32,000 nucleotides of DNA, taken from positions 120,817 to 152,816 of the forward strand of contig CAYHAA010000006.1 of assembly GCA_964354495.1 (NCBI GenBank). The letters run 5' to 3'. The notes under the pieces are model-generated. The model was not told the DNA's origin and ran no database searches. It worked only from the letters and a program-made list of their open reading frames with translations. This document shows positions 16,299-31,835 of this stretch, one piece after another; position 1 is the stretch's first letter, and each line of letters opens with the position of its first letter. The position numbers and the translations under genes were made by a program. The stretch comes from an uncultured archaeon (lineage in GTDB: Archaea > Asgardarchaeota > Thorarchaeia > Thorarchaeales > Thorarchaeaceae).

Positions 16299-16788
16299 AT
16301 AGATCGGCTTGACAATTCTGACACTTCGAGAGACCCTGTTCGGTCTTTGCACCACAATATGGACAAACGACGAGGACCTTGACCACTTCACGCTCTCTCG
16401 TCGAAGTGCTACTCATGGTGGCTTCCGGCGTGGAACGGACGAATGTGTTGCCCTCGACTGTTCCATGAATCATACCTGATGCAATTGCAGAGTAGAGCGC
16501 GTTTTTCACCTTGTCCACGGGGAGTCTCGACATCTCGGAAAGTTCTTCCATGGTGATTCTTGTGTGACCGCGAGCAATCCCGACGACCCTTGTTGCAGTA
16601 GAGATCTCTGCTCTTCGTCGGAATGCAAGTATGAAGAACACCAGCGAAATGACAAAGATGGCTATTCCCACACCCCACATCGCTCCTTCACTCATGATCA
16701 TAGTTGTGATGCCGCCAGCAAGCATCACCAAGCCCAGAAGTATGAATGTGCAGAACATGCAGTCGCCGCACTCTTTGTTTGATGACAT
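16297..16788 (-). CDS. Two-TM membrane protein with PCI-like winged helix and C-terminal double-CxxC Zn ribbon
   Basis: Two TM helices, then ITMEELSEMSRLPVDKVKNALYSAIASGMIHGTVEG (PCI-like wHTH), then CPYCGA...CQNCQA. Confidence 0.75.
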   Translation of the reverse strand: MSSNKECGDCMFCTFILLGLVMLAGGITTMIMSEGAMWGVGIAIFVISLVFFILAFRRRAEISTATRVVGIARGHTRITMEELSEMSRLPVDKVKNALYSAIASGMIHGTVEGNTFVRSTPEATMSSTSTREREVVKVLVVCPYCGAKTEQGLSKCQNCQADL

Positions 16789-16937
16789 AACGGATTTTGC
16801 CTCAGACTATGTTTTATGGCTGTAGAGTGATGTTAATCCACCTGATAGGGACAATGGATTTCATCGGGCCTCAGTAGCAAGACCATGCTTTAGTTCTCGG
16901 GAAAAGGCAACAACTGAGAAAAGGACCACTTTGGAAC

Positions 16938-16970
16938 ATGCCTCCAGAAGACATGAACATCGCAATCTGA
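16938..16970 (+). pseudogene. mvhD: 5' fragment of an mvhD gene (codons 1-10, then stop)
   Basis: ATGCCTCCAGAAGACATGAACATCGCAATCTGA (MPPEDMNIAI*) versus intact ATGCCTCCAAAGGACATGAACATCATCATA (MPPKDMNIII) at 17771. Confidence 0.7.
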
Positions 16971-17055
16971 CCATTTGAAACTTCCATGGTTGGGAACAGA
17001 AAGTTGATGAGAAAAAGGGTCATACTATAAAGCGCTGAGTTGAGGGAAGACACGA

Positions 17056-17661
17056 ATGGTTGCAGAGAACTCTAAAGCTGTTTTTGTGGCAATGACCATC
17101 ATATTCAGTATCTCTGCCGCAGCTTTTCTGTCCTTGAGCGATTCGAGTAATCCAGTCGATACTGGAAACACCTCAGGCATTGCGACTCTCTCAATAATGG
17201 CCAACAGTACCGACCTGCTATATCCCGAGCTGGCCGAGGCAAGTTTCGTGTTTCTGGAGAGTGATACTTGGCGGGTTAACGCTAATTTCATGAATGACTC
17301 CGTCGATTGGTATGATAACCTTGAGATATATGATCTAGACTTTGTGGTCACTTCAGAAGAAGTGAAGTCTATAGACGATGCGCTCTATGAGGGACTGAAC
17401 AAGACTTCTCCTTCTGAGATCTCTGCTATGACGTTGTTGGAACCAGGTCCACACATCTGGTACGACATAGAAATCACATACACTGATGGCTCATGGATAT
17501 ACATCACCACGTTTCAAACAGAAATTGGCCATATCATAACCAACAATGGCACGGGCACTTTTGATGGGAACCTCTTGAGCGGAACAGTCTTAGAGCCATT
17601 GTCTGCTCTTGATCGTCTTGTCTTAGCCATCTATACTATCTTCTCGAACCATCTGGGGTAG
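17056..17661 (+). CDS. Hypothetical acidic secreted/surface protein with N-terminal signal anchor
   Basis: Hydrophobic N-terminus AVFVAMTIIFSISAAAFLSL; D/E/S/T/N-rich body with several NxS/T sequons. Confidence 0.75.
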   Translation: MVAENSKAVFVAMTIIFSISAAAFLSLSDSSNPVDTGNTSGIATLSIMANSTDLLYPELAEASFVFLESDTWRVNANFMNDSVDWYDNLEIYDLDFVVTSEEVKSIDDALYEGLNKTSPSEISAMTLLEPGPHIWYDIEITYTDGSWIYITTFQTEIGHIITNNGTGTFDGNLLSGTVLEPLSALDRLVLAIYTIFSNHLG

Positions 17662-17770
17662 GACTGAAGTTTCTCTCAACATTGTCTTGGTCATTTCAGA
17701 GATACCACAGGTCAAAAGATATAACACCCTTCAAGATTCCCTCAAATCAATTCCAAGTGGTGCTTAGCTA

Positions 17771-18181
17771 ATGCCTCCAAAGGACATGAACATCATCATA
17801 TTTGGTTGCCAACAATGTATGTACGCTGCCTCCGACTTAGCAGGGACCATGAAGCTGCAGTACGATGCGTCGAGCAGGATCATCAGGATGCCGTGCACCG
17901 CAAGGCTCGACATCAACTTCCTTCTGAAGGCATTGCAGGAGGGTGCAGACGGAGTGCTTGTCGTCGGGTGTCATCCAGGAGACTGCGCATTCAAGACTGG
18001 AAATCTGGGGGCAGAGAGGCGGGTCCGTTTCACAAAGAAGCTGATCGAGCAGTTGGGCCTTGACGAGCGCCGCGTGAAGATGGTGTTCGTTTCTGCAGCA
18101 GAGGGCGACAAGTTTGCGGCCGAGGTCAACAAGTTCGCAGAGGAGATACGTGCGATAGGACCGAACCCAATCAGACTGTGA
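17771..18181 (+). CDS. mvhD: MvhD/FlpD [2Fe-2S] hydrogenase iron-sulfur subunit, intact
   Basis: FGCQQCMYAASDLAG, PCTARLD, GADGVLVVGCHPGDC and GPNP motifs. Confidence 0.93.
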   Translation: MPPKDMNIIIFGCQQCMYAASDLAGTMKLQYDASSRIIRMPCTARLDINFLLKALQEGADGVLVVGCHPGDCAFKTGNLGAERRVRFTKKLIEQLGLDERRVKMVFVSAAEGDKFAAEVNKFAEEIRAIGPNPIRL

Positions 18182-18182
18182 T
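18158..18182 (+). repeat. 25-bp direct repeat, copy 1 (3' end of intact mvhD)
   Basis: GGACCGAACCCAATCAGACTGTGAT, identical to 19378..19402. Confidence 0.9.
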
Positions 18183-18238
18183 GGTAGAGGTAGCAAAAGG
18201 CTTATGTGTGCAAAATAATATAATGTACACGATATGGA

Positions 18239-18541
18239 ATGGAAACCGTTACTGCTAGATTACCTGAAGACATGGTCAAGAAGCTGGAGCTCATCGCACG
18301 GGAAGAACAGATTGACAGGTCAGAGTTGATCAGAAGAGCACTTGATATTGGGATACAGCAGTTCCTCTTGGAACGAGCACTCAGAGCGTATAGAGAAAGG
18401 CGAGTATCCCTCTGGAAGGCCGCATCAATGGCTGGTATCCCCCTACGGGCCATGATGAGAGAGGCGGACAAGGGACAGATCCCCATAGCCTACGATGAAG
18501 AAGACCTGGAGCGTGATCTTGCATTTGTCAAGGGTCAGTAG
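18239..18541 (+). CDS. Probable antitoxin: N-terminal ribbon-helix-helix plus UPF0175-like HTH
   Basis: TVTARLPEDM...DRSELIRRAL (RHH) and VSLWKAASMAGIPL (UPF0175-like); immediately upstream of a PIN gene. Confidence 0.8.
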   Translation: METVTARLPEDMVKKLELIAREEQIDRSELIRRALDIGIQQFLLERALRAYRERRVSLWKAASMAGIPLRAMMREADKGQIPIAYDEEDLERDLAFVKGQ

Positions 18542-18542
18542 A

Positions 18543-19040
18543 GTGGTGAGCAATGCAAGTCCTCTGATTCATCTCTCGATGGTTGGGTGTCTCAACTTGC
18601 TTGAGAGATTGTTTGGCAATGTCATAATTCCCGTTGAGGTACTCGAAGTATGCAGTGCAAAGGACACTCCTGATTCGATTGTGATATCGTCTGCAGTCGA
18701 TAAGGGATGGATATTTACTAAGAATGTTGACAGCGGAGATACGGTCCTCTTGGCAAAAAGCTCTGGGATAGATATTGGCGAGGCCGCTGCAATACTACTC
18801 GCAAAACAGGAGAGAGCCTTGCTTCTTATTGATGATAAGATGGGAAGAAGTGCAGCTGAAATTCTAGGAGTCAAATGTCTGGGTACAGTTGGTGTGCTCC
18901 TCCAGGCCCTTTCTGACTCACTACTCAACTTCAACGAATTCGTAGGGATTCTGGATCGGATGATTGATTTAGGATTTCGATTGGACTCGAAAGTCTATAG
19001 ACTGGCAATGCGAGTGGCTAAAGAACTCAAGAAGAATTAG
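18543..19040 (+). CDS. PIN-domain protein (DUF3368-like), probable VapC-type toxin
   Basis: VVSNASPLI, IDIGEAAAILLA, LLLIDDKMGRSAA and GTVGVLL motifs; start uncertain (TTG 18525 or GTG 18543). Confidence 0.8.
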   Translation: MVSNASPLIHLSMVGCLNLLERLFGNVIIPVEVLEVCSAKDTPDSIVISSAVDKGWIFTKNVDSGDTVLLAKSSGIDIGEAAAILLAKQERALLLIDDKMGRSAAEILGVKCLGTVGVLLQALSDSLLNFNEFVGILDRMIDLGFRLDSKVYRLAMRVAKELKKN

Positions 19041-19042
19041 CC

Positions 19043-19401
19043 TTTCGTGCAATGCATGTATGCCGCCTCTGACCTCGCAGGTACGATGAAGTTGCAGTAT
19101 GACGCCACCAGCCCAATCATCAGGAGGCCATGTACCGCCAGACTGGACATCGATTTCCTCCTGAAAGCATTACAGGAGGGAGCAGACGGAGTGCTGGTTG
19201 TCGGGTGCTTAGGGAAATTGCGCATATATGATCGGGAATCTGAGGGACAATCGGCGTTTCAGGTTTGAAGGCAACCAGATTCAAATGAAAGAAGCGAAAA
19301 TGGAATTCATGAATGTCACTGAGCATAATCTAATTAATACCGAGGTCAACAAATCCACTGAGAAAATTCGGGCGATTGGACCGAACCCAATCAGACTGTG
19401 A
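19043..19401 (+). pseudogene. mvhD: Degenerate mvhD copy: 5'-truncated, frameshifted near 19209-19218, with a net 15-nt deletion
   Basis: First frame reads QCMYAASDLAGTMKLQYD...GADGVLVVGC. Second frame (19219-19401) reads CAYMIGNL...EVNKSTEKIRAIGPNPIRL*. Both align to 17771..18181. Confidence 0.88.
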
Positions 19402-19402
19402 T
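19378..19402 (+). repeat. 25-bp direct repeat, copy 2 (3' end of mvhD pseudogene)
   Basis: Identical to 18158..18182, 1220 bp downstream. Confidence 0.9.
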
Positions 19403-20753
19403 ACGGGGCAAAAGTGTGGCCGAGAAGGACTCGAGTGCGAATTCAGTTTGGCTTTTGAAACGTAATTCCTTGGTCAGAAGACTCTTCCTTGGAATCTTTA
19501 CAATAGGGTTTGCAGCAGGAGCATTACGGTTTCTTTTTCCATGGCAGGTACTGAATCTCGGTGGCACGGAATCTCTTATCTCATTAGGAGGCACTCTCTC
19601 TGCCATCGGACAGGTAGTGGGGCTTCTGTTATTGAGCAGGCTGTTTCGCGGCAAGAGAAGTTCGATGCTTGTGAGTGGGTTGCTTCTTGCAGCCTTCGCA
19701 CTGGCAACAGCTCTTGCTCAGGACAGTGTTGTTCTAACGTCAGCGCGACTGTTTGAGGGAGCAGGTGCAGGGTTGCTTGCGCTCCTTATCATCAGGGTGT
19801 CCTGCGAATTCGAGTCTTGCCGGGGAGAAACCGTTGGAACGTTACTGTCAGCTTTGTTCCTAGGGTCAGCAATTGGCCAAGGTGTTGCAGGGATTGCAGT
19901 AGAGAATGTATCACTGGTTCTATCATTGTCACAGCTTGCTGCGATACAATCTCTCGGATTCATACTTTTTCTCCCATTTCTTCCCGTTCTTGGATTGATG
20001 TTACCAAAAATAGAAGATCCGCCTGCACCCACGACGAACGAAGGCCCCAAAGAACACAAGCACTTTCACTTCAGTCATCTTATCAGAGCCCTTCTCACAA
20101 AGAGAGTGGTGCTTCTTGCAGCAGTCTATTTCCTCTACGACTTCTCTCACGGCTTTTACACTCCGATACTCTCCATTCTAATCAATGACAACGGCGTTCC
20201 AATTGATCAAATAGGGTTAGGATATCTTACTGGCGACCTGGTCTGGGGAGGCACTCAGTTGTATGCCGGCCGCCTTGTAGATCGAATTGGTCACATTTGG
20301 CCTCTTGTCCTCAGCCTGCTTGCCAAGGGGACCATAGTGTTCTTCTATGCAGGAGTCTTCTCGTTCACATCACTTATTCCCCTGTTAGCTTTGGCTGGAG
20401 CATCTGAAGGCCTCTTGGAACCGGCGAGAAATGATGCGGCAATGGCCTATAGTCCGGCAAGCAGTCTGACTCATGATCACTCCCATTATTATCTAGTTCA
20501 TAGCCCGGGCATGTCTTTCTCGCTTGCAAAACACGACCATGAACATATGCATCTCACCGGCTCAGATGAGGTCGTTTCTATATTACAGGCAGTTGGACTC
20601 CTCGGTTTTGCTATTGGAGCTAGTGGAGGAGCTTGGATGTTGCTAGAGAATTTGTCAATGTCATTCCTCACGGCAGTTGGGGGGGCAATTCTGATTCTAG
20701 CAGGAGCGCTCTCTGCAGGCTTCCAATTTGCAGGTAAAGCTGAACCACTGTAG
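19398..20753 (+). CDS. MFS transporter with His-rich loops
   Basis: About 12 hydrophobic segments, motif A GRLVDRIGH, ARLFEGAGAG; HKHFHFSH and HDHSH...HDHEHMH loops; start GTG 19398 or GTG ~19416. Confidence 0.85.
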   Translation: MIRGKSVAEKDSSANSVWLLKRNSLVRRLFLGIFTIGFAAGALRFLFPWQVLNLGGTESLISLGGTLSAIGQVVGLLLLSRLFRGKRSSMLVSGLLLAAFALATALAQDSVVLTSARLFEGAGAGLLALLIIRVSCEFESCRGETVGTLLSALFLGSAIGQGVAGIAVENVSLVLSLSQLAAIQSLGFILFLPFLPVLGLMLPKIEDPPAPTTNEGPKEHKHFHFSHLIRALLTKRVVLLAAVYFLYDFSHGFYTPILSILINDNGVPIDQIGLGYLTGDLVWGGTQLYAGRLVDRIGHIWPLVLSLLAKGTIVFFYAGVFSFTSLIPLLALAGASEGLLEPARNDAAMAYSPASSLTHDHSHYYLVHSPGMSFSLAKHDHEHMHLTGSDEVVSILQAVGLLGFAIGASGGAWMLLENLSMSFLTAVGGAILILAGALSAGFQFAGKAEPL

Positions 20754-20815: not shown

Positions 20816-21379
20816 GTGGCGGTTATGATTGAAATCAGGCCTCTAGTGAAGTTGGATTTAACACGTCTTCATGAAATCGGTGCTGGCTATACATCATCTG
20901 CTGTATATCAGGTGGACAAGAGCGAGAACGATACACAGACTACTATCTCTCTGCATCTACAAGAACTTGAGAACCCATACAAGAAACACTGGCTGCCTGA
21001 TGGGGTGATGGACGCCCGCTATGCCAAAGTGATTGGGCAGCGTTTCTCTCTGGGAGCGTACGATGGGAACGGAATGGTAGGAATTGCGATTGCTGAGAAA
21101 CAGGTCTGGAACCGTACCCTCTGGATCTGGGAGTTTCATATTGATTCGGCCTATCAGAAACGAGGGATAGGCAGACAGTTGATGGATCAAATGGCACAAG
21201 ACGGGAGAGCGGCTGGGTGTCGGGTGATGGTCTGTGAGACCCAGAACACCAACGTACCTGCAATCCGTTTCTACCGGGCGGTTGGGTTCGAAGTCGGTGC
21301 GGTCGACCTCTCATATTACTCAAACAAGGATACTACTGATTTCGAGGTCGCAGTGTTCATGAAGCGGTTCATCGAATAG
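20816..21379 (+). CDS. GNAT acetyltransferase, streptothricin-acetyltransferase-like
   Basis: YQKRGIGRQL acetyl-CoA motif; CETQNTNVPAIRFYRAVGF.VGAVDLSYY...EVAVF resembles the SAT family C-terminus. Confidence 0.8.
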   Translation: MAVMIEIRPLVKLDLTRLHEIGAGYTSSAVYQVDKSENDTQTTISLHLQELENPYKKHWLPDGVMDARYAKVIGQRFSLGAYDGNGMVGIAIAEKQVWNRTLWIWEFHIDSAYQKRGIGRQLMDQMAQDGRAAGCRVMVCETQNTNVPAIRFYRAVGFEVGAVDLSYYSNKDTTDFEVAVFMKRFIE

Positions 21380-21400
21380 ACTCCTACTCTTTTGGAAGGA

Positions 21401-21847
21401 CTAGTCCAGTTTCTTCTTCATATGATACGCACTGACCTTGAATCCTAGTTTCTCATAGAGGCGTCTTGCCTGCTTAGCCTTGACGGGGCAGGTCAACCCA
21501 ATCATGTCGGTACCGGCTCGTTTGAAGACATCAATTAGGTTCTCTAAGAGGAGTGTACCAATTCCCTGCTCTCCATACTCTAGATTGACAACCAATAGTT
21601 CAATAGTGGCCACCTTTGAAACTCCCCAGTTCTCCAAGACCGCTCTTGGTATCTCCCGAAAATACCCGTAGACAACTCCTACCACTCTGTTGTCCTCTTC
21701 AGCAACAATACAGCCCTCGGGAAATGCATGGGTTATCTTCAGATCATCTTCGTTTATTGGCCCATCAAAGAAGGCACACTCGTTCGCCAACTTGATGACT
21801 GAATCTGTGTCTCTCTTCTCGAATTGGCGTATTTGCAGCTTGGTCAC
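21401..21847 (-). CDS. GNAT acetyltransferase
   Basis: ELLVVNLEYGEQGIGTLLL and ARRLYEKLGF motifs; GTG 21847 preferred over the upstream extension. Confidence 0.85.
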   Translation of the reverse strand: MTKLQIRQFEKRDTDSVIKLANECAFFDGPINEDDLKITHAFPEGCIVAEEDNRVVGVVYGYFREIPRAVLENWGVSKVATIELLVVNLEYGEQGIGTLLLENLIDVFKRAGTDMIGLTCPVKAKQARRLYEKLGFKVSAYHMKKKLD

Positions 21848-21925
21848 CCACTGATTCTGAAAGTGTAAGTCTATTGAACATAACGCAACCAGAGAAAGAG
21901 CTCTTGCTGGGGTCACATAGAAACA

Positions 21926-21962: not shown

Positions 21963-22838
21963 ATGATCATTACACCAACCATCATTTCACTTCGAGAAGG
22001 CCTTGAGGTAGCTCTGATACTTGTAATCATGCTATCCTACCTGAAGAAGACCAATCAATCTGATCTAAGAAGGTTTGTCATTAATGGAAGTGTATTCGCG
22101 GCAGTTGTAAGTCTTGGAGTCGCTATTGTAGTAGGCCTCTTCTGGGGTGTATTTGAAGGTGCAATGTTGAACATATTCGAGGGTATTGCCGTTCTCATTG
22201 CTGCTCTTCTTCTCACTACAATGATTCTCTGGATGTGGAAGGTCGGTTCGTCGGTGGCAAAGGATATTGAAACATCGATGGAGAGTAGTATCATCAGACA
22301 GAGTGGCATCGGGCTTGCACTCCTGAGTTTCTCGCTTGTTCTACGAGAAGGCGTAGAGATATCGTTATTCAGCATGGCACTTGTAATCCAGGAAGGCGAT
22401 TTGAGCTACGTTGGTGTTGCTCTTGGCCTAGTACTCGCTGCAGGAATCGGTTTTGGAATTTACAAGGAATCGCTTAAGATCAGTATGAAGTCTCTTTTCA
22501 AATGGACCTCAGTCTTTCTTATCCTCTTTGCAGCTGGAATGATTGCATATGGCATTCACGAACTACAAGAAGCAGGTCTGCTACTGATTGGACCACTCGA
22601 AGCGTGGAATATCAATCCTCCACTACTGCCTGACGGAAGTTACCCTGTGTTACACGAAAATGGGGTAATAGGTGGACTTGCTAAGGCGTTGTTCGGATAC
22701 AATGGCAATCCCTCTGCACTCGAAGTCGCCGCGTACCTCACATACATCACAATGGCCATTTCCTACTTCTGGAGAAAACGAAAGACTGTAGTATCGATAG
22801 GCCAGAGAGAATCCATGAAAGTAGCTCCTGCAAGCTGA
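21963..22838 (+). CDS. FTR1/EfeU-family iron permease
   Basis: Two RExxE motifs (LREGLE, LREGVE), YGIHELQEAG and LFGYNGNPS.LE; about 7 TM helices. Confidence 0.93.
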   Translation: MIITPTIISLREGLEVALILVIMLSYLKKTNQSDLRRFVINGSVFAAVVSLGVAIVVGLFWGVFEGAMLNIFEGIAVLIAALLLTTMILWMWKVGSSVAKDIETSMESSIIRQSGIGLALLSFSLVLREGVEISLFSMALVIQEGDLSYVGVALGLVLAAGIGFGIYKESLKISMKSLFKWTSVFLILFAAGMIAYGIHELQEAGLLLIGPLEAWNINPPLLPDGSYPVLHENGVIGGLAKALFGYNGNPSALEVAAYLTYITMAISYFWRKRKTVVSIGQRESMKVAPAS

Positions 22839-23089
22839 TGATACTTCGATATCAATCACTGCCACCTGCATCTGCCTATTACCATTAGTTCATATGAAGA
22901 TAATTAACTCATGACAGGAGAAAAAAGAAAGAATCTGACTCAGCTCATTGATTCAGTATAGACTGAGTGAAATCCCAATAGGATATCCAACTTGGAGAAG
23001 TATTATCGTTTTTGGCTACTAGTATCTCATTTATTACCAAATCAGCTGATAACCAGACTCAAGAAAAAACATGTGAATTAGGGTGCATT

Positions 23090-23914
23090 ATGAAAATGGC
23101 AAAGGTCCCAAAACAGAAGAATACGCTAAAAGAAAGGATTCATCGGCTTATCAGTGATAATGAGCGTTGCATCTTGGCACTGGACGAGCTTGAGAATGAC
23201 ATTGAAGTCCAGACCTTACTGGAAGATAGCAACAGAATGGCTATAGATCGCATGGCCTATTCAGACCATGGACATACCCATTCACTCATTGTGGCTCTTA
23301 ATGGAATTAAGTTGATTCGTGCGCTCAGCAGCGGACTTCAGCCATCGATAGTCCAGGAAGAAACTGGCGACCTCAAGGATGCTGAATTGGTGGTCATGCT
23401 TGGCTGCTATCTACATGACATCGGCATGGTTCTCGGCAGAACAAACCATGATGAGTTCTCAGTCGTTCTGGCAATTCCAATCATCGATAGAATTCTTGGA
23501 AAGGTCTACCCGAAGGACCGACACAAGCAGGTTCACATACGCGATCATATTATTCATGCCATCTACTGCCATGACAAGGTCGCTCCTCCCATGACAATAG
23601 AGGCTGGTGTCGTTGGAGTAGCTGACGCGCTAGACATGACGAAAGGAAGAGCGAGAATCCCATTTGAGGCTGGAAGTGTCAACATACACTCTGCATCAGC
23701 AATGGCAATCGAGGATGTGAAGATTCGAAAAGGCGAAACCAAGACTGTTCGCATCGAGGTCGATATGACCAATGTGTCCGGCATATTCCAGATTCAGGAG
23801 CTCCTTGAAAAGAAGATCAGGAATGCACGGTCTCTCATAGACCACATAGAGCTGTATGCAATCATGGCACCAAAAGAGGATGCAATTCTAAAGAAAGAGC
23901 TTAGAGTGCTATAA
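23090..23914 (+). CDS. HD-superfamily metal-dependent phosphohydrolase
   Basis: YSDHGHTH, YLHDIGM, IYCHD and VADALDM motifs; ATG 23090 preferred. Confidence 0.88.
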   Translation: MKMAKVPKQKNTLKERIHRLISDNERCILALDELENDIEVQTLLEDSNRMAIDRMAYSDHGHTHSLIVALNGIKLIRALSSGLQPSIVQEETGDLKDAELVVMLGCYLHDIGMVLGRTNHDEFSVVLAIPIIDRILGKVYPKDRHKQVHIRDHIIHAIYCHDKVAPPMTIEAGVVGVADALDMTKGRARIPFEAGSVNIHSASAMAIEDVKIRKGETKTVRIEVDMTNVSGIFQIQELLEKKIRNARSLIDHIELYAIMAPKEDAILKKELRVL

Positions 23915-24027
23915 GTGACTCGTACATTTGTGTGAAAGACGCTTTCGAAGTCGCACATATCGGCTAGTATATATGCACGGAACCGAACACTCTCTCTTGG
24001 ATGTACTGCACCGCAGAGGCTTAGCTG

Positions 24028-24483
24028 ATGAAATTGGATGACATTGACTCTAAGATAATCGCAATGCTTCAAGAGGATGGGCGACAGTCCTACAACGATA
24101 TAGCCGAGGCTGTCGGGCGAACTGAGGTCACAATCAGACGCCGCGTGAAACGACTGAAGGATACGGGCTACATCAAGCGGTTCACCGTGGTTCTAAATCC
24201 TATGAAGATAGGAAAACGAATTCGTGCAATAATCCGTGTGAAGACAGCAATAAAGGAAACAACTCTCATCTCCAAGAAACTGAGGACTTTCAAGGAAGTG
24301 GACGAGGCCTACTTTCTGGATGGTGCATGCGGTCTTATCATGACCGTCACAGTGGATGACCTCACAGAACTCAGGATGTTCCTCGAGAAACGCCTTGGTG
24401 GTATTCAAGGTGTTAGTGATGCGGAAACCTGCATAATCCTTGAAGAGATTAAGTCGGCATTTTCAGACCCTGGTGCTCTATGA
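24028..24483 (+). CDS. Lrp/AsnC-family transcriptional regulator
   Basis: LDDIDSKIIAMLQEDGRQSYNDIAEAVG...RRVKRLKDTGYIKRF HTH followed by a RAM domain. Confidence 0.93.
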   Translation: MKLDDIDSKIIAMLQEDGRQSYNDIAEAVGRTEVTIRRRVKRLKDTGYIKRFTVVLNPMKIGKRIRAIIRVKTAIKETTLISKKLRTFKEVDEAYFLDGACGLIMTVTVDDLTELRMFLEKRLGGIQGVSDAETCIILEEIKSAFSDPGAL

Positions 24484-24920
24484 TGCAGTACGAACTGCAG
24501 ATCTCTAGGAATGAGCTCATACGGCTACAGGACCATGCGGAGAGGATGCTCCCCGATGAAGCAGTCGCTCTCCTCTTTGGAACCATATCAGGTATCTCTG
24601 TACATGTGACCCTGGTGGAGCTCATTGAGAACACATCCGCTACCGCACACACATCCTTCTCGGTGAGCCCCGAGGTAGAGTATAGTCTTCTAGTCGAAGC
24701 AGAGCAACGAGGTGAATCCCTAGTTGGGATATTCCACTCTCATCCTGCACCTCCTAGACCATCTCAGAGCGACCTGAGGAACATGCGTTTCAATCCTGTT
24801 GTGTGGTTGGTGGCATCAAAACTCACTGGAAGCTGGATTGTCAAAGGGTATGCCCTGGAAGAGAACCGCGCTGTGGAAGTCGTCATGCATGTCGTGGAAT
24901 CTCGTGATTCAATCCCTTGA
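24480..24920 (+). CDS. JAMM/MPN+ metalloprotease (desampylase/deubiquitinase family)
   Basis: EAVALLFG and VGIFHSHPAPPRPSQSD (complete HxH-x7-S-x2-D JAMM motif); start overlaps the Lrp stop. Confidence 0.9.
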   Translation: MMQYELQISRNELIRLQDHAERMLPDEAVALLFGTISGISVHVTLVELIENTSATAHTSFSVSPEVEYSLLVEAEQRGESLVGIFHSHPAPPRPSQSDLRNMRFNPVVWLVASKLTGSWIVKGYALEENRAVEVVMHVVESRDSIP

Positions 24921-30808: not shown

Positions 30809-31195
30809 TCACTGAATCAGGACTAAGAGATGCTTGACATCATTGCCTGTCTTCTCATTAATGACATCTACGAGCTGCTCGAGAAGGTGTTTTATGTTCT
30901 CCCCACCAATATCAACTATTGCTCCGTTTGAGCTGACGAGGTTCACATGTGGAGTAGGGTTCAATTCAAACCGTGTCTCTCCTAGATAAGAGAAGCTACG
31001 CAGCAGTCCTAGTTCCTCGAATGTAGCGAGGTTCTTCAGTACGGTAGACTGGCTTACGGTCGCATGTCTGTTCCTGAATATCTCATAGATTTCAGAGAAT
31101 GAGGGATGGTTCCTCCCATACTCTTCAAGAATCCGTACCAGTTCAAGTCGTTGAGGCGTGAGGCGCAGTCCATTTTCTCTGAGTCGTTCTATCAC
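30809..31195 (-). CDS. Fur/PerR-family transcriptional regulator lacking CxxC motifs
   Basis: GLRLTPQR, HPSFSEIY, STVLKNLATFEELGL and RFE...H; divergent from dpsL. Confidence 0.88.
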   Translation of the reverse strand: MIERLRENGLRLTPQRLELVRILEEYGRNHPSFSEIYEIFRNRHATVSQSTVLKNLATFEELGLLRSFSYLGETRFELNPTPHVNLVSSNGAIVDIGGENIKHLLEQLVDVINEKTGNDVKHLLVLIQ

Positions 31196-31283: not shown

Positions 31284-31835
31284 TTGGCGAAAGTCGCTAG
31301 AGAAATGGTCGAGAAGGCCGGGATTGAAGTAGACAAACTACTCAACCTTCTGATTAAGAACGCTGCAGCTGAGCTGACGACATTCTACTACTACACTATT
31401 CTTCGGGTCAACTTGATCGGGCTCGAGGGTGAAGGTGTCAAAGAGATCGCAGAAACTGCGCGCATTGAAGATAGGAACCACTTCGAGGCATTGGTACCTC
31501 GCATCTACGAGCTTGGTGGCCAGCTGCCAGAAGGGATGGTGGAGTTCCATAACATGTCTGCATGTCCGCCTGCGAAGCTTCCAAAGGACCCGACAGACGT
31601 CAAGGCGATGCTGAAGGTCTTGGTGGACGCAGAGCGATGCGCAGTCAGAGGTTACACTCAAATCTGTCACATGACTGCAGGAAAGGACCACAGAACCTAT
31701 GATTTGGCACTAGCTATCCTCCACGAAGAAGTGGAACACGAGTCGTGGTTCTCTGAGTTCCTCGGTGAGGGCCCATCTGGTCACTTCCTCCGTCGGGGCG
31801 AAACTTCTCCCTTCGTTGGTAAGTTCCTTCGATAG
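31284..31835 (+). CDS. dpsL: Dps-like protein (DpsL, ferritin-like with conserved Cys pair)
   Basis: AAAELTTFYYYTILR, ARIEDRNHFE, SACP, AERCAVRGY and EEVEHESWF; TTG start with GGTGA RBS upstream. Confidence 0.92.
   Translation: MAKVAREMVEKAGIEVDKLLNLLIKNAAAELTTFYYYTILRVNLIGLEGEGVKEIAETARIEDRNHFEALVPRIYELGGQLPEGMVEFHNMSACPPAKLPKDPTDVKAMLKVLVDAERCAVRGYTQICHMTAGKDHRTYDLALAILHEEVEHESWFSEFLGEGPSGHFLRRGETSPFVGKFLR

Follow-up and report, generated by a model that had tools for sequence, protein, structure and literature searches.

A gene for a major facilitator superfamily (MFS) transporter with two histidine-rich segments, here called His-MFS, lies in a 32,000-nucleotide stretch of contig CAYHAA010000006.1 (the window; positions 120,817–152,816, assembly GCA_964354495.1), which comes from an uncultured archaeon of the family Thorarchaeaceae. 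Upstream of it on the same strand lie an intact and a decayed copy of mvhD with a toxin–antitoxin (TA) pair between them, and downstream of it lies a gene for an FTR1-family iron permease (Table 1). His-MFS is present as a single copy in the source genome, whose completeness is 97.7%. Comparison of the protein, its predicted structure and its gene neighbourhoods across related genomes is consistent with a tentative reading of the family as Asgard-specific carriers of a divalent metal cation that collect the ion on an ordered cytoplasmic hairpin.

Table 1 Features of the His-MFS locus. Positions are those of the window; TM, transmembrane helix.
Feature	Position	Strand	Details
His-ladder MFS transporter gene (His-MFS)	19398–20753	+	open reading frame, GTG start, 451 aa, 12 TM helices, both termini cytoplasmic
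Central-loop His cluster HKHFHFSH	20055–20078	+	TM6–TM7 loop, just before TM7; H222 and H224 (HxH) invariant
TM7 signature YDFSHGFYTP	20136–20165	+	D248 and H251 near mid-helix; TM7 is helix 235–264 in the model
TM10 signature EGLLEPARN	20406–20432	+	E337 mid-helix; E341, P342 and N345 toward the cytoplasmic end; TM10 is helix 323–350
Family-specific insert, predicted beta-hairpin	20460–20558	+	strands 355–367 and 375–387; HxHxH (359/361/363) opposite HxHxHxH (379/381/383/385)
Intact stand-alone mvhD, former operon partner of the MFS gene	17771–18181	+	FlpD family, 136 aa; Pfam FlpD, E 8.5e-47; collinear with locus L008
Inserted TA pair, now parting mvhD from the MFS gene	18239–19040	+	RHH/UPF0175 antitoxin, 18239–18541; PIN-like DUF3368 protein, 18495–19040 (Pfam)
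Decayed second mvhD copy reaching the MFS start	19050–19402	+	FlpD match on a 73-aa fragment
FTR1/EfeU-family iron permease, recurrent His-MFS neighbour	21963–22838	+	Pfam FTR1, E 2.7e-40; NCBIfam EfeU, 197 bits against a cutoff of 255

The Pfam profile MFS_1 (PF07690) matches residues 29–357 of the window protein (E 5.9e-25; 88.4 bits against a cutoff of 33.4), ending shortly before the second His cluster, and matches 26 of 26 family members in the smaller of the two alignments described below. AlphaFold2 (AF2) models of the window protein (pLDDT 82.9, pTM 0.83) and of a Promethearchaeota member with 38% identity to it (P0047; pLDDT 90.3, pTM 0.88) each contain 12 TM helices, and the modelled fold is that of the MFS, in which a central loop on the cytoplasmic side connects two bundles of six helices. 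Alignment against solved structures with VIA-align gave FLVCR2 (Z 34.8) and SotB (Z 33.8) over ~360–383 residues, and Foldseek gave a probability of 1.00 to many MFS proteins, with FLVCR, SotB, VMAT and MdfA among the structural neighbours listed; all of these matches are generic MFS, and neither tool provided a hint of the substrate. A sequence-profile search of the PDB returned nothing at E up to 0.1, the ESM Atlas returned generic MFS clusters only, and NCBIfam gave only weak matches below cutoff, none above E 6e-5. MFS motif A, GxLxDRxG, is found in the cytoplasmic loop between TM2 and TM3 and/or between TM8 and TM9; here it is represented by GRLVDRIG at 291–298, between TM8 and TM9 (G291, D295 and G298 invariant in the 26-sequence alignment), and the TM2–TM3 copy is degenerate (SRLFRGKR). 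Antiporters of the DHA type carry motif B (RxxQG) in TM4 and motif C (GxxxGPxxGG) in TM5. The window protein has a motif B-like RLFEG at 117–121 in TM4 (R117 and G121 invariant and E120 over 90% conserved in the same alignment), and in TM5 the segment GSAIGQGVAG at 156–165 (GxxxGQGxxG) resembles motif C with Q replacing P; neither motif is strictly matched.

Of the 14 His residues of the protein, four are in the central loop and eight in an extra segment that separates TM10 from TM11 (the insert); the other two are H251 and H299. An earlier note, made from the letters of this DNA, had described an MFS protein with HKHFHFSH in its central loop and a second His tract in a late loop, 12 His in total, and the translation agrees (4 + 8), the second cluster (bases 20472–20552) reading HDHSHYYLVH...KHDHEHMH. 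Topology prediction, which that note named as a check, gives 12 TM helices in both AF2 models, and both His clusters are placed in the cytoplasm by the positive-inside rule, since the predicted inside loops hold 18 Lys and Arg residues and the outside loops none.

Conservation was assessed in an alignment of 26 homologues (A1) and in one of 39 homologues reaching down to 28% identity (range 28–90%; 28–55% relative to the reference). Ten His residues are invariant in both (H222, H224, H251, H359, H361, H363, H379, H381, H383 and H385), while H220 (81% conserved), H227 (variable) and H368 are not. Among the 39 homologues, His occupies 10 of 31 invariant columns, compared with 14 of 451 residues in the protein (hypergeometric P = 4e-10), and within the insert conservation is 100% in each of the seven ladder His columns, against a mean of 57% in the non-His columns. 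MFS loops are often variable and compositionally biased, so that His-rich tracts could in principle arise as chance low-complexity sequence in an ordinary MFS protein. That explanation is effectively ruled out here by the invariance of ten His down to 28% identity while nearby loop positions vary, and by the P value given above. The earlier note would have given up its proposal of a metal-transporting or metal-gated MFS had these residues varied; they are strictly conserved, and its proposal remains the best reading.

Outside the loops, TM7 and TM10 also hold invariant residues. In TM7, Y247, D248, F249, H251, G252, Y254, T255 and P256 are invariant in the 26-sequence alignment (family motif YD[FL][SA]HGxYTP), and in TM10, E337, E341, P342 and N345 are invariant in all 39 sequences (family motif E[GSA]LxEPx[RK]N); a third family motif, GRLVDRxG, is located between TM8 and TM9. 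As TM7 and TM10 line the MFS cavity, D248 and H251 together with E337 and E341 are candidate intramembrane metal ligands.

The insert between TM10 and TM11 comprises ~38 residues and is absent as a whole from the nearest ordinary MFS matches (E about 1e-6). Its predicted hairpin strands have a pLDDT of about 55 in the model of the window protein, and the model of P0047 presents the same hairpin independently (strands 344–356 and 362–374, pLDDT 67–80). Read as antiparallel from the strand limits, the cross-strand His pairs are H363–H379, H361–H381 and H359–H383 in the window protein and H351–H367, H349–H369 and H347–H371 in P0047, the same register in both. Given the i, i+2 spacing of the His within this register, which derives from strand limits and not from coordinates, the seven invariant His are predicted to form a 'His ladder' on one face of the hairpin, on the cytoplasmic side. 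Zinc sites in beta-sheets, such as that of carbonic anhydrase, classically combine an HxH motif with a His from the neighbouring strand, and the ladder, at the level of the strand limits of the models, resembles that arrangement.

A word-indexed search of 5.8 billion proteins returned 48 clusters, and every cluster named to an organism is from an Asgard archaeon; phmmer, run exhaustively over 1.84 billion representatives, gave only 15 matches below 1e-10, and a motif-seeded scan of 185,579 species genomes gave 20 loci, all Asgard. Named members belong to Thor-, Odin-, Heimdall-, Hod-, Kari- and Promethearchaeota, and are currently labelled only 'MFS transporter' or 'hypothetical'. His-MFS therefore constitutes a small MFS subfamily restricted to Asgard archaea, and its signature separates it from the generic 'MFS transporter' annotation. 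No curated family model and no solved relative were found in the databases searched, literature searches for an MFS with His-rich loops or an Asgard metal MFS returned no description of the family, and a paper on the Asgard transportome does not mention it (PMC7997004). The gene is carried by 34 of the 301 Asgard genomes searched (9 of 90 high-quality genomes) and, within the genus of the source genome, by 2 of 24 other genomes, being missing from 22. Some copies are decayed, as in two Thorarchaeota genomes in which the gene is split by frameshifts or stops (L019:8286–8997 and G152:C10:37464–38765); the second of these genomes, G152, has no FTR1 match. His-MFS is an accessory gene and not a core function.

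The most recurrent neighbour is FTR1, itself single-copy in the source genome, which is encoded within 0.1–3.9 kb of His-MFS in three lineages (Thorarchaeota, Hodarchaeota and a Heimdall-labelled lineage), in a different arrangement in each. In most Thorarchaeota loci FTR1 is downstream of the MFS gene on the same strand, in one Hodarchaeota locus (L012) it lies 3.9 kb downstream, and in three genomes of the Heimdall-labelled lineage (L067–L069) it is divergently adjacent to an operon of an HxlR regulator and an MFS gene whose product shares only about 30% identity with the window protein. This proximity is unlikely to be due to chance, since it is kept across wide divergence in different arrangements. 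FTR1 is present in about 28 of the 34 MFS-positive genomes and in 139 of the 267 others, a mild enrichment among genomes that are not independent, and for this reason adjacency was used rather than co-occurrence. Beside these archaeal FTR1 genes, no homologue of a ferroxidase, of EfeO/EfeB or of P19 was seen. In the Heimdall-labelled lineage, the HxlR regulator has an N-terminal CLC motif and is encoded 11 nt upstream of the divergent His-MFS (L068:1753–3502, also L067 and L069); the HxlR/His-MFS unit faces FTR1 across about 260 bp, followed by pstB, phoU, pstS and pstC.

Further neighbours likewise suggest a link with metals or metalloids. Four Hodarchaeota loci encode His-MFS divergently from a CadC-like ArsR/SmtB regulator (ELCVCDL motif and N-terminal Cys) and a P1B-2 ATPase of the Zn/Cd type (CPC and CxxC motifs, 477–481 bits against TIGR01512). 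In two Hodarchaeota, the divergent region between arsR and His-MFS (L012:7823–7997, L010:3632–3847) contains a conserved TTTGAA-N6-TTCAAA palindrome, a candidate operator located nearer to arsR; an operator shared by arsR and the MFS gene is not established in these two Hodarchaeota, the MFS-proximal part not being conserved. Neighbours in Thorarchaeota include an arsenite methyltransferase (ArsM; NF008823, 331 bits) divergent from a PadR regulator, and in Promethearchaeota a ChrB_C protein. In five Thorarchaeota loci (L005:6008–7194, also L006 and L050–L052), a PadR with a Cys-rich N-terminus (CCPPSCC) and ArsM are directly upstream of mvhD–MFS–FTR1; the PadR may be an arsenic-responsive regulator. 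Neither hydrogenase or hyp genes nor chelator biosynthesis genes were seen among the annotated neighbours in related loci.

In Thorarchaeota, the gene preceding His-MFS is mvhD. At locus L008, whose MFS protein is 90% identical to that of the window, the GTG start of the MFS gene overlaps the TGA stop of mvhD (GTGA), 16 nt separate the two genes at L005 and L006, and nine further metagenome loci have mvhD immediately before the MFS gene. The earlier note was therefore right to place the transporter beside mvhD and to suppose that the two were once coupled: translational coupling of mvhD and the MFS gene is real in Thorarchaeota and is broken in the window. The TA pair that parts them is absent from the L008 locus, which is 85% identical in DNA, and the decayed mvhD copy (77% and 86% identical to the intact copy and 85% to L008 by blastn) retains the former 3' end of mvhD, with which the start codon of the MFS gene once overlapped. 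A further remnant of the mvhD N-terminus, ten codons long (MPPEDMNIAI, then a stop), occurs at 16938–16967, so that the mvhD locus (16938–19402) is a patchwork; L008 has one mvhD and no TA pair, and the window contains about 615 bases more (16359–16973). Because partial mvhD copies are also found downstream of His-MFS in other Thorarchaeota contigs (L044:7391–7696, L045:1244–1998), the MFS block is bracketed by mvhD repeats. These arrangements suggest that mvhD is a hot spot of recombination or insertion, and bracketing by its repeats could explain the patchy loss of the MFS gene. Genes for an HD-domain protein, for an AsnC/Lrp regulator and for a JAB/MPN protein form a block (23012–24920 in the window) that adjoins mvhD in all Thorarchaeota examined, with or without the MFS gene and FTR1.

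The tight coupling to mvhD and the recurrence of FTR1 raise the question of whether the His residues serve mainly for docking (of MvhD, FTR1 or a chaperone) or for structure, in a protein that would be a sensor or adaptor and not a metal carrier; FTR1-family permeases do need partner proteins in the systems studied (PMC11966278). We regard this as very unlikely, as both mvhD and FTR1 persist in genus-mates that have no MFS gene, members outside Thorarchaeota have no mvhD neighbour, and the MFS transport motifs and cavity residues are all intact and conserved.

The same observations bear on the role that the earlier note had tentatively suggested for the transporter, namely the supply of nickel for a [NiFe]-hydrogenase. 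The source genome encodes four full FlpD domains, and the mvhD that adjoins a NiFe large subunit is on another contig (C14), the copy in the window being a stand-alone paralogue. Genus-mates without the MFS gene keep this same mvhD at the same locus, beside the HD, AsnC and JAB genes, the MFS gene itself is found in only the 34 genomes counted above, the source genome already has CbiM, and the neighbours that recur are FTR1 and the CadC-like regulator with its P1B ATPase, not hydrogenase or hyp genes. Given a stand-alone mvhD that persists without the MFS gene, and FTR1 and Cad-like genes as the recurrent neighbours, the nickel-for-hydrogenase proposal is unsupported, and no finding links the gene to nickel in particular or to the maturation of hydrogenase.

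Uptake can be considered more broadly, as import of Ni, Co, Zn or Fe in which the His hairpin would take over the ion as it enters or would provide feedback sensing, in the manner of ZIP transporters. In Thorarchaeota the gene for the FTR1 importer is in the same neighbourhood as His-MFS and on the same strand, ZIP importers typically have His-rich loops in the cytoplasm, and the source genome has [NiFe]-hydrogenases and no NiCoT (NicO) permease. Against this, the genome already has one ZIP and one CbiM-type Ni/Co uptake component, beside two CDF proteins (the CDF and ZIP genes being elsewhere than His-MFS); most Asgard genomes lack the MFS gene, among them 22 of the 24 genus-mates, hydrogenase and hyp genes are not among its annotated neighbours and the hydrogenase-linked mvhD is on a different contig, the Hodarchaeota context is a Cd/Zn export pair, and the MFS carriers of bare cations, NrsD and NreB, act in efflux. 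Import thus seems rather unlikely.

From the fold, the topology, the residue invariance, the predicted hairpin, the neighbourhoods and the accessory distribution, we infer metal binding, the identity of the metal, an intramembrane site and a direction of transport that together would make His-MFS a 12-helix, Asgard-only MFS carrier of a divalent transition-metal cation, with the His hairpin and a TM site, working in efflux by H+ antiport; we give this account a probability of roughly 0.4. The seven invariant His, on one face of a two-stranded beta-hairpin projecting into the cytoplasm between TM10 and TM11, would form with the invariant HxH before TM7 a platform that collects or senses metal where the C-terminal six-helix bundle opens to the cytoplasm. 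The ion would then be passed to the intramembrane site of D248/H251 and E337/E341 and expelled in exchange for protons by the usual rocker-switch of the MFS. Efflux by proton antiport is favoured because of the accessory distribution, the resistance-gene neighbours, the DHA-like motifs and the precedent of NrsD and NreB. The candidate substrates are Fe2+, Zn2+, Cd2+, Co2+ and Ni2+, with Fe2+ as first choice since the FTR1 neighbour recurs; the Hodarchaeota context equally suggests Zn or Cd.

Several observations weigh against this account. Importers such as ZIP likewise have His-rich loops on the cytoplasmic side, so that these do not fix the direction of transport. The proximity of a gene for iron import speaks against export of iron, provided that both genes are expressed together; MFS–FTR1 gaps of 100–430 nt, or divergent orientation, would allow separate promoters. 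FTR1 also stands alone elsewhere in genus-mates that have no MFS gene, so that the two are not obligate partners, and four Heimdall loci (L011, L017, L018 and L062) contain no metal genes. The HxlR family, to which the regulator in the Heimdall-labelled lineage (g51) belongs, is associated with redox and electrophile sensing and is not a classical metal sensor. The structural neighbours are generic (FLVCR, SotB, VMAT), with ferroportin not among the top matches listed. Confidence in the hairpin is only moderate (pLDDT 55 and 67–80), and the His face and the TM7/TM10 site were deduced from strand and helix limits and not from model coordinates.

The HxlR regulator is also consistent with a redox or electrophile stress response, and with a substrate other than a bare cation (a metal chelate, a metallophore, a histidine-type ligand or an organic cation), in which case the His hairpin would act as a metal- or pH-dependent gate at the cytoplasmic entrance. 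Most MFS proteins carry organic solutes, and the predicted position of the hairpin, at the mouth on the cytoplasmic side, is one from which it could plug the entrance. The MFS includes known exporters of metallophores and known importers of ferric siderophores (PMC7762939). We nevertheless consider such a substrate unlikely, as chelator biosynthesis genes were not seen among the annotated neighbours and the invariant Asp/His/Glu/Glu set in TM7 and TM10 would fit a small cation better.

Compared with characterised systems, transport of a divalent metal by His-MFS would be closest to that of two bacterial exporters. NrsD of Synechocystis is an MFS protein whose C-terminus bears a His-rich region that binds metal (PMC4284471), and NreB, an MFS protein of nickel resistance, has been described as exchanging Ni2+ for H+ by antiport (PMC9195940); both carry the bare cation, and both are exporters (PMC4284471, PMC9195940). 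The view of the earlier note that HxHxH tracts are unusual in MFS proteins thus calls for correction, as MFS proteins with His-rich segments are on record. Like nrsD and nreB (the latter of Cupriavidus/Achromobacter and Streptomyces plasmids), His-MFS is an accessory gene among metal-resistance genes, and would likewise encode an MFS protein for a bare transition-metal cation. The two systems differ from it in being bacterial, and in that the His-rich region of NrsD is a C-terminal tail, whereas residues 386–451 of His-MFS contain no His and the clusters are at 220–227 and 359–385. A tblastn search of 72,556 plasmids for nreB-like genes gave one weak generic MFS match (E 3e-3, 23% coverage), with no named NreB or NrsD sequence in the comparison.

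Ferroportin (SLC40A1, and BbFPN in bacteria) is an MFS-fold exporter of Fe2+, Co2+ and Zn2+ with intramembrane Asp and His (and Cys) ligands. The proposed D248/H251 and E337/E341 site would be analogous to that of ferroportin, with ligands at different positions; to our knowledge ferroportin has no His-ladder hairpin, and the Pfam profile FPN1 (PF06963) did not match any of the 26 members at E up to 1.

CDF (TM4–TM5; PMC7762939), ZIP (TM3–TM4) and RcnA transporters likewise have cytoplasmic tracts of alternating HxH, by which Zn, Ni, Co or Fe is bound and delivered, or sensed. The folds and families of these proteins are unrelated to that of His-MFS, and the NicO, Cation_efflux and Zip profiles do not match it, MFS_1 and MFS_1_like being the only ones that do. 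The His loops of CDF, ZIP and RcnA proteins generally vary in both length and sequence and are regarded as disordered, unlike those of His-MFS, in which the tract positions are invariant and the segment is predicted to be a regular beta-hairpin. What would be new, on the best reading of the models, is an MFS metal transporter that uses an ordered, invariant internal hairpin, and not a loose tail, as its metal-binding element. Known MFS carriers of bare metal ions are few (NreB, NrsD and ferroportin), and how such ions are recognised is only partly understood; the invariant motif set of HxH, DFSHG and ExxxEPxxN and the predicted seven-His hairpin provide elements that can each be tested. Asgard archaea are the closest prokaryotic relatives of eukaryotes, and their metal physiology is almost unexplored.

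The yeast Fet3p–Ftr1p, EfeUOB and FtrABCD systems also encode an FTR1-family permease beside accessory proteins, and FTR1-family permeases require partners in the systems studied (PMC11966278); here the neighbours are His-MFS and, in Thorarchaeota, the small iron–sulfur protein MvhD. A more speculative, and in our estimate doubtful, extension is that His-MFS is an unrecognised archaeal component of iron handling that works with FTR1, the hairpin being a new ordered metal-transfer module and the [2Fe-2S] centre of MvhD giving or taking an electron for an Fe2+/Fe3+ step in Thorarchaeota. We know of no partner of Asgard FTR1 genes and of no MFS partner in any described FTR1 system. The adjacency in three lineages makes the question of an archaeal FTR1 partner directly testable.

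Two further features of the window concern the surroundings of these genes. Two convergent GNAT acetyltransferase genes (20816–21916) lie between the MFS gene and FTR1 in this genus and are absent from that position in other Thorarchaeota (e.g. L005, L006 and L050–L053). At ~10 kb from the MFS gene is a second locus of iron and oxidative stress, in which a Fur/PerR regulator (30809–31195, minus strand) is divergent from an archaeal Dps (31284–31835; NF040955, 303 bits).

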